From assembly GCA_043756005.1 (NCBI GenBank), contig JAYUTB010000008.1:2316-66315 (forward strand): a stretch of 64,000 nucleotides of DNA, read 5' to 3'. Under the pieces are notes generated by a model. The model had not been told where the DNA came from. It ran no database searches and was given only the letters and a program-made list of their open reading frames with translations. Below, in pieces: positions 4,150 to 52,331 of this stretch (its first letter is position 1; the number at the start of each line of letters is the position of its first letter). The position numbers were made by a program, and so were the translations under genes. The stretch is from Spiroplasmataceae bacterium (GTDB lineage: Bacteria; Bacillota_I; Bacilli_A; Mycoplasmatales; JAYUTB01).

Positions 4150-4477
4150 AATTTAAAAACAATACTAAGTTGTTGTAATAAATAATTTAATCATCTATTT
4201 AAAAATCATCGGCTTCTTTTGAAATTAAACAATGAAACACGCTTTTACAAATGTTTTCATCACATTTGCGACGCCGTTTTAATTCAACTGCATTCATATC
4301 ATCACCCTACCTTTACTTTATATATTACGTTGTTTTGATATGTTATATCAACAAACAACTAATATTATTTAAACTGTTTTTTATAAATTTCCTAAAAATT
4401 TATAAAAAACATCATCATCAGGAAAGTAAAGTGGTGAACAACCTCAATAAGCCACATTTTGTATTTTTAAATTTAAC

Positions 4478-4826
4478 TTTAAAAACGTTGATTATTTATC
4501 TATTAGTATAAATACTAATCCGTATCTTAGTTCAGTTACTAAGAAACGACTCCTCTACCATAAAATTGTTTGAGTTGCTCGCTTGTGGGGTTTACCGCGT
4601 TTCACTTTTTAAATTTCTCTAAAAAATCGTCACTGTGGCACCTTAAAAATCAATCAACCATGGTTAATAAAAACTTTAGGTTAATCAATTTGCCGTTAAG
4701 AGGTGGGTGACCTCCTACTTAAAGTTATTGATTCCTTTAACACAATCATTATAATCATCGCAGATTATACGCGAGGGTGGACTTTCCTCTAATTTTTTTT
4801 AAAAAATCAGCAATCAACTTTCTGGC
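4478..4826 (-). ncRNA. rnpB: RNase P RNA (ends approximate)
   Basis: The reverse strand carries the universal AGAGGAAAGTCC box (comp. 4779-4790) preceded by a P3-like hairpin, plus GTGCCACAGTGACG and AAGATACGG segments. GTTGATT (comp. 4812-4818) can pair with AATCAAC (comp. 4487-4493) as a closing helix. Confidence 0.85.
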
Positions 4827-23297: not shown

Positions 23298-23390
23298 TGG
23301 TGGAGTAAGGGGGATTTGAACCCACGCGTCATTTGCACAACCTACCTCATTAGCAGCGAGGCCTCTTCAACCGAACTTGAGTATTACTCC
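23298..23390 (-). tRNA. tRNA-Ser (anticodon GCU)
   Basis: The reverse strand GGAGTAATACTCAAG...CCTCG-CTGCTAA-TGAGG...GGGTTCAAATCCCCCTTACTCCACCA gives a cloverleaf with a long variable arm, anticodon loop CU-GCU-AA and an encoded CCA. Confidence 0.92.
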
Positions 23391-23665: not shown

Positions 23666-23697
23666 TTGACTTTATATATATATCATTTAAGTAAGGT
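23666..23697 (+). promoter_or_regulatory. promoter-like TTGACT + (TA)5 tract + SD upstream of the 23698 gene
   Basis: TTGACT at 23666-23671, (TA)5 at 23673-23682, then TAAGG before ATG 23698. This is a short version of the cassette seen at 35876, 47434 and 27493. Confidence 0.5.
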
Positions 23698-25629: not shown

Positions 25630-25661
25630 ATGTTTGCGTGATAAATTTATCACGCAAACAT
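25630..25661. other. 32-nt perfect palindrome (possible terminator or protein-binding site)
   Basis: ATGTTTGCGTGATAAATTTATCACGCAAACAT is self-complementary with no loop. It lies downstream of the 23698-25343 gene. Confidence 0.7.
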
Positions 25662-25780
25662 TACTAGCAATTGATAGATAAGTTGAGTTTATTATGGTTC
25701 AGCCGTTCCTTGATCAATATTTGATGTTGTTATGATAAAAATATCTTCTTTTACATAAGTTGTTTTTACTTTTTATATAT

Positions 25781-26353
25781 AAAAAGGAAATTTTGTATAA
25801 TTAGTCACAAAATTAATTAATAAGCGTTACCTAGTTGATAAATCAGGATTGTTAAGTAATCATTGCGTATCAGTTCATTGTTCATGATCAAATCACAATT
25901 TTTCTGCTAATAACACTTGATCATATGTTTGACGGCCTTTATAGTTTTTATTAAAAATAATAAATCAAGTTATTTTAAAACATGAATCATGTTTTAAATA
26001 AAAAATATATCAGGTACAACCAAAAATTAAACAATAATTAACTAAAAAATAAATTCATAGATAACGAAGGGGAATAAAATAAAAAAATGGTAAAAAATAC
26101 AAAAAATAATTTTTGTTTAATAGTTTAATCTTCCTCTTGATAAGTTTTTTTAAAAAAATATCAACTAATATTGTTGAATAAGGGGATTTGAGCCCATCCG
26201 TCATTTGCACAACCTACCTCATTAGCAGCGAGGCCTCTTCAATCGAACTTAAGTATTACTCAAATCATTACTAACGTACTAAAAAATTATAAATAATCTT
26301 AGTTTGTTAAAATAATTATATATACATTATAAAAATAATAACAAATGACATTC
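25781..26353. repeat. degenerate second copy of 22826-23483 (cls 5' end + tRNA-Ser + flank)
   Basis: The two regions align by eye along their whole length, with scattered substitutions and two deletions of about 40 bp. The copies are direct repeats bracketing 23484-25780. Confidence 0.9.
26171..26262 (-). pseudogene. tRNA-Ser(GCU) relic inside the duplicated segment
   Basis: The anticodon arm is identical to the 23298-23390 copy. The 3' CCA is changed to ACA, the acceptor stem is altered, and the T-loop reads GCTCAAAT instead of GTTCAAAT. Confidence 0.65.
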
Positions 26354-26516: not shown

Positions 26517-27423
26517 TTTATTTTTGACGTTTTTTAATAATAAAAACTAATGCTGTAATTAAAGCAATAATACCTAGTGAAACAGGTAATCCAATTGTTA
26601 AAAGTTGGTTATTTGTATCAGTTTTTGACGTTTCTTGAGCTTTTGGTATTGGTTGAGTGTCTGAAGTTTTTGGTTTTTCTTGAACTTTTGGTATTACTTT
26701 AGTTTCTGAAATTTTTGGTATTGGTTGAGTTTCTGAAGTTTTTGGTGTTGCTGGAGTGTCTGAAGTTTTTGGTATTGGTTGAGTTTCTTGAGCTTTTGGT
26801 ATTGGTTGAGTGTCTGAAGTTTTTGGGGTTGTGGGTTTGTTTATTGTTACATTTTTAACAATTGTATTTTGAAATTTTAATTCAATTTGATCATTTGGTA
26901 ATTCGTTTATTGAATCAATATCATTTGCAATTTCATAACTGATTGAATGGTCTATTTTTGAAAATAAAATTTTTTGATCTTTAATATATGTTATTCAATC
27001 ACCTTCAGTTAAAGAAAAAACTTTTGGAAGATTTTTAATCTTATCATCTGCTTTTCCGGTTGTTAAATTTATAAAATAATTAGAAGTGACTTTGGAACCA
27101 AAACTATCTATAAATAAATAATCATTTTTATCAATCGTCAAAAAGAACATTTTGGTTTTGTAGTCTTTTACATCATCAGGAATATAATAAAAATCATCTT
27201 TATTTAAAATAATTGCATAATATAGATTACCTCATCCCCCTCATTTTCTTTTCTCTATTTTATATGTTTTGTCATTATATTCAATTTCTTCTATAATTCT
27301 TTTATTGTCACTAAATGTTTCAAAATCAGTGAATGATTTTTGCTTAATATCTGCTGAAAATAAAGTAATAACTAAAACTGGTACAACAATAATTGGTAAT
27401 ATATTTTTCAATAATTTTTTCAT
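26517..27423 (-). CDS. surface protein with Pro/Thr/Lys-rich repeats; C-terminal membrane anchor out of frame
   Basis: ATG at 27423, signal peptide MKKLLKNILPIIVVPVLVITLFSA. The frame checked codon by codon ends at TAA 26533-26535. The anchor SLGIIALITALVFIIKKRQK* (to 26517) lies in the adjacent frame after the A4/T4 run at 26579-26582. Confidence 0.7.
26590..26830 (-). repeat. imperfect 27-30-nt coding repeats (PIPK[TA][SQ][DE]TQ)
   Basis: GGTATTGGTTGAGT[GT]TCTGAAGTTTTTGG-type units are repeated about 7 times. Confidence 0.8.
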
Positions 27424-27493
<70 letters not shown>

Positions 27494-35875: not shown

Positions 35876-35935
35876 TTGACTTTATATATATATATATATA
35901 AAATAAAAATAACTTATGTAAAGGAAGTTATTTTT
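35876..35935 (+). promoter_or_regulatory. promoter/leader cassette with (TA)9 and SD-overlapping hairpin
   Basis: TTGACT 35876-35881, (TA)9 35883-35900 (17-nt spacer to TAAAAT), AAATAAAAA, hairpin AATAACTT/AAGTTATT 35908-35932 overlapping AAGGAAG, ATG 35936. Confidence 0.7.
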
Positions 35936-36178
35936 ATGAAAAAATTATTGAAATTTACAAACCTAAATAAAGTAGTTTTATTTAGTTTGGTGACAATTCC
36001 GGTAGCTGCTATTTTAATGACGGCAAATGCTTGTCAAGGACCAACAGGACCAGCAGGATCTAAAGGTGAAACAGGAGCAGTAGGACCTAAAGGTGAAACA
36101 GGAGCAGTAGGATCTAAAGGTGAAACAGGAGCAGTAGGACCTAAAGGTGAAACAGGAGCAGTAGGACCTAAAGCGTAA
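35936..36178 (+). CDS. small collagen-like (Gly-X-Y)n putative lipoprotein
   Basis: [33 protein letters not shown] (signal peptide ending in Cys) is followed by 15 uninterrupted G-X-Y triplets ([18 protein letters not shown]...). SD AAGGAAG lies upstream and a strong terminator follows. Confidence 0.75.
36065..36172 (+). repeat. 27-nt tandem repeat x4 (GETGAVG[PS]K)
   Basis: GGTGAAACAGGAGCAGTAGGA[CT]CTAAA starts at 36065, 36092, 36119 and 36146. Confidence 0.95.
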
Positions 36179-46424: not shown

Positions 46425-47382
46425 TTAGTTGTTGTTTTGAGCTGCTTTTAATTTTGCATCGGCTTCATCTAATGTTTGTTGAGCTGTTTTTAATTTTGCA
46501 TCAGCATCGTCTAATTTATTTTTACTTTCTAATCAACTTGATGAGTTGTTGAAATTTAAATTTGCAAAATCAATTGTTTGGTTAAATTTACTTAAAATAG
46601 GTTTGATATATGATGGAGAATATATATTATTCAATACTTGTAAAACATAAATTGATGATCAATTTTGATTTTTGATTGCATTAATTACATTAAATTCATT
46701 TTTTACAAACATAATATTAAAATTATTATCACTCGATTTTGGAATGAATAATGCAAGTAATTCTTTTAGTGCTGTTGTTTTTGTTTTTTCATCGGTTGCG
46801 TTAATTCATTTATCTAATAATGTTTTTTTAGCAGTATCTGTTGCAGGCATTAATGCTGTAAGTAATGTTTTTAGTGCGTTTATTTTTTCTGTTTCATCGG
46901 TTGCGTTAATTCATTTATCTAATAATGCTTTGTGATCTTTTGCTAATGCTTTAAGTAATTGTAGTAAAGAATTTTCGGTTGTTGCGATATTTGATGCTGG
47001 ATTTATAAATAATTGAAAATATGTTCTGCTTTTATCTCCACTTTTTGATAAAATTTTATTTAAATTTGTTGTTAAATTAGATTGTTCGGTTTGTAAATAA
47101 AATTTATAATTAAATATTGATTTAAGTAAATCTAAATCTAAAATTTTAGAATTTAAGAAATTTGAATTTATAATATTAAAATTTTGTTGAGCATGTTGTT
47201 GGTTTGTTTTTGCATGTTGTTGGTTTGTTTTTGCATGTTGTTGGTTTTTTATTGCATCATCTAATTCTTTATCAACACCTCAACAATTTTTTGCTGATGT
47301 TGAAATAACAACTGCCGGTATTGTTATCAAACTAAATAAAACAACTTTATTTAAGTTTGTAAATTTCAATAATTTTTTCATA
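46425..47382 (-). pseudogene. putative surface lipoprotein, frame broken inside the signal peptide at a T5 run
   Basis: ATG 47382 gives [16 protein letters not shown]. After removing one T at comp. 47338-47342 the frame reads LFSLITIPAVVISTSAKNC... and stays open to TAA 46425. It contains NQQHAKT x3 and LLDKWINATDE x2 repeats. Confidence 0.7.
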
Positions 47383-47434
47383 AAAACAACTTCCTTTTCA
47401 TAAGTTGTTTTTATTTTATATATATAAAGTCAAG
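47383..47434 (-). promoter_or_regulatory. promoter/leader cassette with (TA)5 and SD-overlapping hairpin
   Basis: On the reverse strand: TTGACT (47429-47434), T, (TA)5 (47418-47427), AAATAAAAA, hairpin AACAACTT/AAGTTGTT (47386-47410) overlapping AAGGAAG, ATG 47382. Confidence 0.65.
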
Positions 47435-51777: not shown

Positions 51778-51854
51778 CTAAAGCGTATGCTAAACGAGTA
51801 ATCGAAATTTGTCTCTTTAACAAATTTCGATTACTCGTTTAGCATACGCTTTAG
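51778..51854. repeat. 77-nt palindromic element (35-bp perfect stem, 7-nt loop)
   Basis: CTAAAGCGTATGCTAAACGAGTAATCGAAATTTGT-CTCTTTA-ACAAATTTCGATTACTCGTTTAGCATACGCTTTAG. Partial copies lie at 23517-23578 and 25485-25529. It sits between convergent genes, so it may also act as a terminator. Confidence 0.9.
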
Positions 51855-52255: not shown

Positions 52256-52331
52256 TGGTACCCACGATAAGACTTGAACTTATGGCCACATACTTAGAAG
52301 GCATGTGCTCTATCCACTGAGCTACGTGGGC
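52256..52331 (-). tRNA. tRNA-Arg (anticodon UCU)
   Basis: The reverse strand GCCCACGTAGCTCAGTGGATAGAGCACATGCCTTCTAAGTATGTGGCCATAAGTTCAAGTCTTATCGTGGGTACCA gives a clean cloverleaf with anticodon loop CU-UCU-AA. Confidence 0.92.

Follow-up and report, generated by a model that had tools for sequence, protein, structure and literature searches.

In the window examined here, the whole 64,000-nucleotide (nt) stretch of contig JAYUTB010000008.1 from a Spiroplasmataceae bacterium, three genes are preceded by intact copies of a promoter cassette whose -35/-10 spacer is a TA repeat and whose downstream part is a palindrome of up to 13 bp. The palindrome begins in the -10 box, crosses the predicted transcription start, and ends in the start codon. 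The best reading, to which a probability of roughly 0.4 is given, is that the palindrome insulates a switchable gene against read-through transcripts. This reading builds on the geometry of the repeat, its conservation among eight copies, and its folding energies, all of which were observed or computed here, and it postulates a start position, a read-through RNA, and an effect on expression.

The cassette and its 13-bp inverted repeat

The source genome comprises 501,793 bases in 15 contigs, has a G+C content of ~28%, and reads TGA as Trp; among the reference genomes searched, it is the sole member of its own family. Regular-expression and nhmmer profile searches recovered eight intact cassettes genome-wide, three of them in the window and the other five on contigs C7 (two) and C9 (three). 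The nhmmer profile found no cassettes in the whole genome beyond these eight and one decayed copy. When 40 relatives and 400 genomes of the order were searched for the cassette pattern, it was present in this genome alone, and a protein search of 5.8 billion clusters with the 318-amino-acid (aa) lipoprotein matched only the query itself. Scans of genome and metagenome contigs with a looser pattern gave, among the matches listed, nothing but chance hits in AT-rich sequence. The copy described first extends from 35876 to 35938, with the order AAAAATAACTT ATGTAAAGG AAGTTATTTTT ATG downstream of TAAAAT, and its promoter is listed at 35876-35904 by a promoter scan of the window. Its parts are as follows.

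35876-35881 (+): -35 hexamer TTGACT (promoter scan, TTGACT-17-TAAAAT, 10 of 12)
35882-35898 (+): 17-nt spacer, TT followed by a TA repeat
35899-35904 (+): -10 hexamer TAAAAT, whose final two bases also form the outer end of the 5' arm
35903-35915 (+): 5' arm of the 13-bp perfect inverted repeat, ATAAAAATAACTT (the 8-bp arm described earlier is 35908-35915)
35916-35924 (+): 9-nt loop ATGTAAAGG, which contains the 5' part of the Shine-Dalgarno sequence (AAAGG)
35925-35937 (+): 3' arm AAGTTATTTTTAT, which spans the remaining, 3' portion of the Shine-Dalgarno sequence, the spacer, and the AT of ATG
35936-36178 (+): gene driven by the cassette, encoding an 80-aa lipoprotein with collagen-like repeats

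The other copies in the window lie on the opposite strand.

47380-47414 (-): second copy, 13-bp inverted repeat ATAAAAACAACTT/ATGAAAAGG/AAGTTGTTTTTAT with C-G at covarying pair 3, -10.7 kcal/mol
47433-47428, 47418-47413, and from 47381 (-): -35 hexamer, -10 hexamer, and ATG of the second copy, with a 9-nt promoter spacer
27422-27456 (-): third copy, core AACATCTT/CTTATAAAT/AAGATGTT at 27427-27451, with a 27-nt promoter spacer
25731-25786 (-): decayed cassette, with the -35 hexamer lost and ATG changed to ATC; hairpin remnant at 25740-25764

A first-pass annotation of this DNA had described an 8-bp hairpin before the start codon of each intact cassette. Two of its three hairpins lie exactly where it placed them, AATAACTT/ATGTAAAGG/AAGTTATT at 35908-35932 and AACATCTT/CTTATAAAT/AAGATGTT on the complement at 27427-27451. 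The third, AACAACTT/ATGAAAAGG/AAGTTGTT, is present on the complement at 47385-47409, one nucleotide away from the 47386-47410 given for it. The 8-bp stem itself exists, but it is the inner part of a repeat of up to 13 bp, which in the first copy (35903-35937) starts with the final two -10 bases and reaches as far as the AT of ATG. The repeat is perfect over 13 bp in six of the eight copies (ATAAAAATAACTT N8-9 AAGTTATTTTTAT). The exceptions are copy C7_526, in which 12 bp are paired and the closing pair is T.T, a change that alters the Shine-Dalgarno sequence as well, and the 27451 copy, in which the 8-bp core is followed by a single A.G mismatch in the outer stem and then by four further pairs. 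The outer five pairs are perfect in seven of the eight copies. The loop is the most variable part of the cassette; it measures 8 nt in two copies and 11 nt in the copy with the broken closing pair. The overlap of the 3' arm with the ribosome-binding site that had been noted for two loci extends to seven of the eight copies, in which the arm covers part of AAAGGAAG; the 27451 copy has no Shine-Dalgarno sequence.

Conservation of the pairing was assessed in an alignment of the eight copies. Standard pairs occupy 102 of the 104 pair cells (98.1%), compared to 49 to 70% when the 3' partners were slid by 1 to 3 columns as a control, and only 1 of 500 column shuffles matched the observed pairing or covariation score. 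The two uncompensated cells are the T.T closing pair of C7_526 and the outer-stem A.G of the 27451 copy. Two stem pairs change on both sides, one being U-A in six copies and C-G in two, the other A-U in six and U-A in two. The first-pass annotation held that stem positions 3 and 5 always carry the compensating change. For these two positions this is correct across all eight copies: the four combinations of T or C at position 3 with A or T at position 5 are all found, each of them compensated, including both variant pairs of the 27451 copy. It does not extend to the whole 8-bp stem, to which the T.T closing pair of C7_526 belongs. Non-compensated stem changes had been named as a sign against a selected structure, and one intact gene, C7_526, carries such a change. 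No G.U intermediates occur at stem positions among the eight copies. A good example of the compensated changes is provided by copies C7_7510 and 47409, each of which has three differences from the consensus in the 35-nt region, two of them forming a compensated pair; random placement of three changes yields a compensated pair with P = 0.022 to 0.027 per copy. The covariation set consists of eight paralogs from one genome, with two covarying pairs and at least two independent events. Pairing conservation is real, yet thinly evidenced. In the decayed copy, the loss of pairing reported earlier was seen again, the arms AACAACTT and AAGATATT (25740-25764) leaving two positions unpaired. These arms resemble an uncompensated intermediate between the two neighboring arm types.

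A (TA)n promoter and its predicted transcription start

The spacers between TTGACT and TAAAAT measure 20, 11, 17, 9, 27, 19, 17, and 17 nt in the eight copies. Because they range from 9 to 27 nt and are exactly 17 nt in three copies, the two hexamers are taken as a promoter, in which the TA repeat forms the -35/-10 spacer and varies in length among copies around the 17-nt optimum. A spacer of (TA)n is typical of the phase-variable lipoprotein promoters of Vmm (Mycoplasma mycoides) and Vmc (M. capricolum) (Persson 2002; Wise 2006; both as summarized in PMC3053259), and by its sequence the cassette is a putative phase-variable promoter of this Vmm-like kind. Two likenesses are apparent. First, a run of TA dinucleotides lies between -35 and -10, and the copies are dispersed and differ in repeat number. 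Second, the leader and the lipoprotein signal peptide are conserved before divergent repetitive bodies. As read from the sequence, five of the eight products begin MKKL(L/F)KFTNLNK and have a Cys after SAK(D/N) or ANA, while the other three have a signal or C-terminal anchor of a different type; a single cassette type precedes unrelated coding bodies. There are differences as well. The pattern and protein searches described above gave no sequence homology to Vmm/Vmc, and the leaders in the M. mycoides-like genus are unrelated in sequence. The genomes of that genus have TTGACATTA(TA)nTATAAT, often with a small hairpin directly after the -10 box, whereas the -10 hexamer here is TAAAAT and the palindrome spans from the -10 box to ATG, including the ribosome site.

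TA repeats were also seen outside the cassettes. Two more TTGACT + (TA)n promoters, with other -10 boxes and other leaders, lie in this genome at 23666-23697 (+) of the window and at about 13531 (-) of contig C10. G247, a genome of the same order, contains 222 matches of TTGAT[AC]TTTGT(TA)n. On one contig, C8 (locus L232 and its neighbors), they form a very large array of TA-repeat units, which occur every 0.3 to 2 kb, each followed by a conserved stretch of ~70 nt.

The position of the transcription start decides how much of the palindrome a transcript contains. Mapped starts of Mesoplasma florum lie 6 to 7 nt after the -10 box (PMC7745072). Since the same rule was applied to TAAAAT at 35899-35904, the +1 is expected at 35910-35911, inside the 5' arm and at position 3 or 4 of the 8-bp arm. 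With a predicted start at 35911, position 35910 would be -1, and covarying pair 3, whose base there is a pyrimidine in either variant (T or C), would fall outside the gene's own mRNA.

Folding energies differ sharply between the two lengths of stem. Folded as RNA, the 8-bp stem gives -3.1 kcal/mol (z = -0.27), no better than shuffled sequence, and an RNA from the predicted start retains ~5 A-U-rich pairs (-0.8 kcal/mol, z = +0.92) and is unfolded. These values lend no support to the earlier reading of the 8-bp helix as a leader hairpin. For the 13-bp stem, in comparison, seven intact leaders were folded: five of them give -8.8 to -10.7 kcal/mol (z of about -4.3), C7_526 gives -8.4 kcal/mol, and the 27451 copy gives -6.9 kcal/mol (z = -2.2). 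The energy required to open the ribosome site, computed for -15 to +3 around AUG, is 9.2 to 11.6 kcal/mol in upstream-started RNA compared to 2.1 to 5.4 kcal/mol in RNA from the predicted start, in seven of the eight copies. Moving the own start from the 4th to the 8th nt after the -10 box shifts the opening energy by at most about 2 kcal/mol in seven of the eight copies and by 3.6 kcal/mol in the 27451 copy. Because the gene's own predicted transcript is unfolded and the outer pairs lie upstream of it, the helix would matter only in DNA or in RNA entering from upstream. This means that the stable 13-bp structure probably exists only in DNA or in upstream-started RNA.

At the gathering score, no RNA family in Rfam 15 matched the hairpin in the window. 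Rfam matches in the window were limited to three RNA genes.

4445-4825 (-): RNase P RNA class B (Rfam)
52259-52331 (-): tRNA gene (Rfam)
23301-23390 (-): tRNA gene (Rfam)

Proposed insulation against read-through transcripts

The proposed insulator would work as follows. The 5' arm begins in the final bases of the -10 box and would continue past the transcription start, and the 3' arm takes in the last part of the Shine-Dalgarno sequence, the spacer, and the AU of AUG. An RNA made from the gene's own promoter would carry only ~5 nt of the 5' arm, so that its leader would be open and translated. An RNA entering from upstream, either by read-through from a co-directional gene or from a cryptic start in the AT-rich spacer, would carry both arms and could fold a helix of -9 to -11 kcal/mol that buries the ribosome site. 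The helix, flanked by A5 and U5, would also resemble the weak A-T-rich terminators of mollicutes. In this way the hairpin would insulate the gene, and its ON/OFF state would be determined by the TA-repeat promoter alone. The complementarity of the arms may be maintained partly by templated correction at the DNA level and not by selection alone.

Several observations speak for this proposal. First, the outer five pairs, conserved as described above, are of no use to the gene's own mRNA, and covarying pair 3 would lie at -1; both points support an insulator. Second, genes with the same signal peptide but ordinary promoters do not have the 5' arm, which was counted for the insulator too. These paralogs (MKKLLKNILP..., MKKLLKYTNLNK...) lie on contigs C12 (7399), C11 (2861), C10 (11349), and C1 (159940). 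Their promoters lack a long TA-repeat spacer (the gene at C10 11349 has a short (TA)4 run only), and their leaders, although without the 5' arm, share TATTTTTATGAAAAAATTATT and retain TATTTTTATG. Third, a co-directional open reading frame (ORF) lies upstream of five of the eight cassettes, and in the case of C7_526 its stop is 5 nt ahead of the -35 hexamer. Finally, four of these five cassettes are separated from the upstream ORF by intergenic sequence, and in each of the four no perfect repeat between the upstream stop and ATG is stronger than the cassette helix.

The principle has precedents. Tn10 is reported to be shielded by its own means against promoters outside it (Davis et al. 1985, as cited in PMC13181058). 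As in the fold-back of IS10, IS50, and IS200, an inverted repeat has one arm over the translation start, and the full helix would form in outside-derived transcripts; the 5' arm of the cassette lies at or upstream of the predicted own start and the 3' arm over the Shine-Dalgarno sequence and start codon. The proposed purpose is shared as well, namely to allow expression only when the gene's own promoter, weak or switchable, is active. The cassette differs from these elements in that it precedes a contingency surface-protein gene and not a mobile element, in that a single helix would be both an anti-ribosome-site and a terminator-like element, and in that the 5' arm overlaps the promoter's own predicted start site. 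As a terminator-like element, the helix resembles the A-T-rich type of M. gallisepticum, an organism without Rho, whose terminators have about five A-T pairs and two G-C pairs (PMC4245973). A fold-back, terminator-like insulator inside a contingency promoter is perhaps new, while its principle is already known from mobile elements. The complete arrangement, a promoter-embedded insulator in which the start lies inside the 5' arm, the helix is invisible to the own mRNA, outside transcripts are silenced, and ON/OFF switching is leak-proof, is rather unlikely to hold in all of these respects.

Some (TA)n cassettes of the M. mycoides group may be built in a similar way, with complementarity between the Shine-Dalgarno sequence and the 7 nt that directly follow the -10 box. 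For instance, at loci L235, L243, L265, L266, and L261 (G193 and its kin) the 6 to 7 nt that come next to the -10 box, GTGTCTT or GTTTCT, are complementary to the Shine-Dalgarno region (AGGACAT, AGGAAAC). A test for anti-Shine-Dalgarno complementarity in M. mycoides-like leaders gave nominal P values of 0.03 to 0.06 per leader and was not significant overall. About two leader families reached nominal P < 0.05, and five of the 14 distinct leaders show no such complementarity.

A number of findings weigh against the insulator. First, the upstream genes are divergent in three of the eight cassettes. Second, the helix has the features of a poor terminator, with an 8- to 9-nt loop, one or two G-C pairs, and a short U run after the core stem; the stem is not G+C-rich, the U5 run belongs to the stem, and a terminator consensus scan of the window did not call the cassette helix. 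Third, the ribosome-site opening energy of C7_526 is nearly unchanged, 8.4 kcal/mol in promoter-started RNA compared to 9.2 kcal/mol in upstream-started RNA. Fourth, the 27451 copy, with no Shine-Dalgarno sequence left and a 27-nt spacer, still has the stem. Fifth, the two further (TA)n promoters of the genome have no palindrome, and the hairpin is therefore dispensable for the TA-repeat switch itself. Finally, the covariation relies on two pairs among paralogs of a single genome, and a non-selective route to compensation may exist in this genome.

Competing explanations and the genome-wide palindrome excess

That non-selective route forms the core of the main alternative, which is considered somewhat less likely than the insulator. 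The inverted repeat would have been born once, by a replication template switch in an ancestral leader, would have spread with the cassette, and would be kept perfect by quasi-palindrome correction, each arm serving as template for changes that arise in its partner. Covariation would then be a mutational signature, and the helix would have no selected role in expression. Perfect palindromes with arms of at least 10 bp number 194 genome-wide, compared to 32 to 40 in Markov shuffles. With arms of at least 12 bp, 107 are perfect and 23 have one mismatch (~10 of the latter are expected by chance). This ratio departs from those of two same-order relatives of similar G+C content, which have 8 perfect versus 9 one-mismatch and 10 versus 17 per 200 kb, near 1:1 to 1:2. 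The excess lies inside ORFs, where perfect repeats occur at 17.5 per 100 kb versus 0.6 in both relatives (~30-fold). These intragenic repeats are spread evenly along genes, all differ in sequence, and occur in the genes for transketolase, MetRS, M17 aminopeptidase, and MnmG, among others. Examples of palindromes in the window are found at 51778-51854 (35-bp arms) and 25630-25661.

Because the excess lies inside genes, selection for RNA structure cannot explain the pattern, and templated correction is the explanation favored for it. Template switching is known to convert imperfect repeats to perfect ones (PMC7202029), and the palindrome excess suggests either rampant template-switch mutation or a missing hairpin-processing function. 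The first-pass annotation had read the compensating changes as the signature of a selected RNA structure. It was right that complementarity is kept through changes in both arms, but against the ~30-fold intragenic excess the step from compensation to selection no longer follows. Quasi-palindrome template-switch mutagenesis (Ripley 1982; Lovett laboratory; PMC7202029) predicts compensating double changes like those seen here; it is a mutational process and not a function, and in this genome its action is inferred from genome statistics.

Further details of the cassette fit such an origin. The arms reach exactly to the bases fixed by the -10 box and ATG. The flip from A-T to T-A at pair 5 has no wobble intermediate. 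The hairpin-less paralogs already have TATTTTTATG, a possible template of the 5' arm. In addition, inverting the loop of the 27451 copy raises its agreement with the other loops from 4/9 to 7/9 (P = 0.016). Reverse-complemented, this loop (CTTATAAAT, 27435-27443, minus strand) has 7/9, 6/9, and 5/9 matches, compared to 4/9, 3/9, and 4/9 in direct orientation. This looks like a hairpin-mediated loop inversion by which, judging by the sequences, a 301-aa gene that is intact in other respects would have lost its Shine-Dalgarno sequence; that loop inversion is a hairpin event at the DNA level is our own suggestion and goes beyond PMC7202029.

Other observations speak against a by-product. Non-coding DNA has 49 perfect repeats per 100 kb, near the 33 to 41 of the relatives, and because of this closeness a non-coding palindrome is not itself unusual here. 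The two mismatches of the decayed copy are uncorrected, whereas 102 of 104 cells are paired in the intact copies, and all eight of the latter keep the repeat despite heavy divergence of the loop. A by-product would also lie over both the start site and the ribosome site by coincidence, for which the chance is ~2% per given 100 bp (107 repeats per 502 kb). Neither of two additional comparisons was informative: an aminopeptidase alignment with seven homologs gave no clear direction as to which arm of the intragenic palindrome is derived, and none of the other paralogous palindrome families checked had informative compensated differences.

An unlikely alternative is that the stem-loop acts in the gene's own 5' untranslated region, as the first-pass annotation proposed, either by masking the Shine-Dalgarno sequence to tune translation or as a 5'-terminal shield against 5' exonucleases. 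The pairing is conserved with compensated changes and the 3' arm overlaps AAAGGAAG, both of which speak for this model, and if the start lay further upstream an own-leader hairpin could form. Stabilizing 5'-terminal stem-loops are familiar from Gram-positive and Escherichia coli mRNAs, for instance in the ermC, aprE, and ompA leaders, which likewise have a hairpin near the mRNA 5' end and upstream of the ribosome site. However, those helices are stable and wholly transcribed, whereas the transcribed part here is predicted to be the 5 A-U-rich pairs at -0.8 kcal/mol, and the 8-bp stem folds no better than shuffled sequence. A comparison closer to this gene class is the M. mycoides-like genus, in which several (TA)n leaders have a hairpin that begins at the predicted +1 and includes U.G pairs, which form in the sense RNA only. 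One such hairpin, AGCUAUAUA/UAUGUAGCU, gives -8.8 to -10.8 kcal/mol. Because these leaders carry a hairpin at +1, a 5'-terminal stem-loop is plausible for the gene class. In the cassette, by contrast, the five stabilizing outer pairs lie upstream of any likely start, opening of the ribosome site barely depends on whether RNA starts at the 4th or the 8th nt (seven of eight copies), and the 27451 copy keeps its stem without a Shine-Dalgarno sequence to mask.

Two last groups of explanations are very improbable. The palindrome could be a CIRCE-like DNA operator, given that its geometry is like that of CIRCE, TTAGCACTC-N9-GAGTGCTAA (PMC4245973), and that it overlaps the predicted start site. CIRCE/HrcA half-sites are invariant (PMC4245973), whereas the half-site bases of the cassette vary, always with the complement in the other arm, which contact by a homodimer would not demand; moreover, the spacer is 8, 9, or 11 nt, being 8 nt in two copies and 11 nt in the one with the broken closing pair. 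Hardly any weight, either, is given to a role of the hairpin in recombination as single-stranded DNA, by which the promoter cassette would be carried in front of new genes. For this one could cite that one cassette stands before unrelated coding bodies and that homology of the decayed copy stops precisely at the last base of the 3' arm (...TTTTTAT/C), but in most copies homology passes the hairpin into the signal peptide and no flanking inverted pair, recombinase, or target duplication was seen. The same holds for the terminator of a leader-peptide attenuator with the TA repeat in a small ORF: upstream of the repeat a leader ORF would have neither a Shine-Dalgarno sequence nor a credible start, and the 17-nt consensus -35/-10 spacing explains the repeat better. 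The attenuator was rejected on these two grounds, and an invertible promoter was rejected for lack of flanking inverted pairs.

Two points give the case a wider significance. First, changes that compensate each other in a hairpin of this genome are no proof of a selected RNA structure. Caution with covariation is called for because perfect palindromes are generated or maintained here at the DNA level on a large scale, and their excess in housekeeping genes may be more surprising than the cassette hairpin itself. Second, phase-variable surface genes aid immune evasion only if OFF is truly off. Transcription termination in mollicutes is poor and initiation is promiscuous. If the insulator reading is true, a helix that lets the gene's own mRNA pass but blocks foreign transcripts would explain how switching can be tight.

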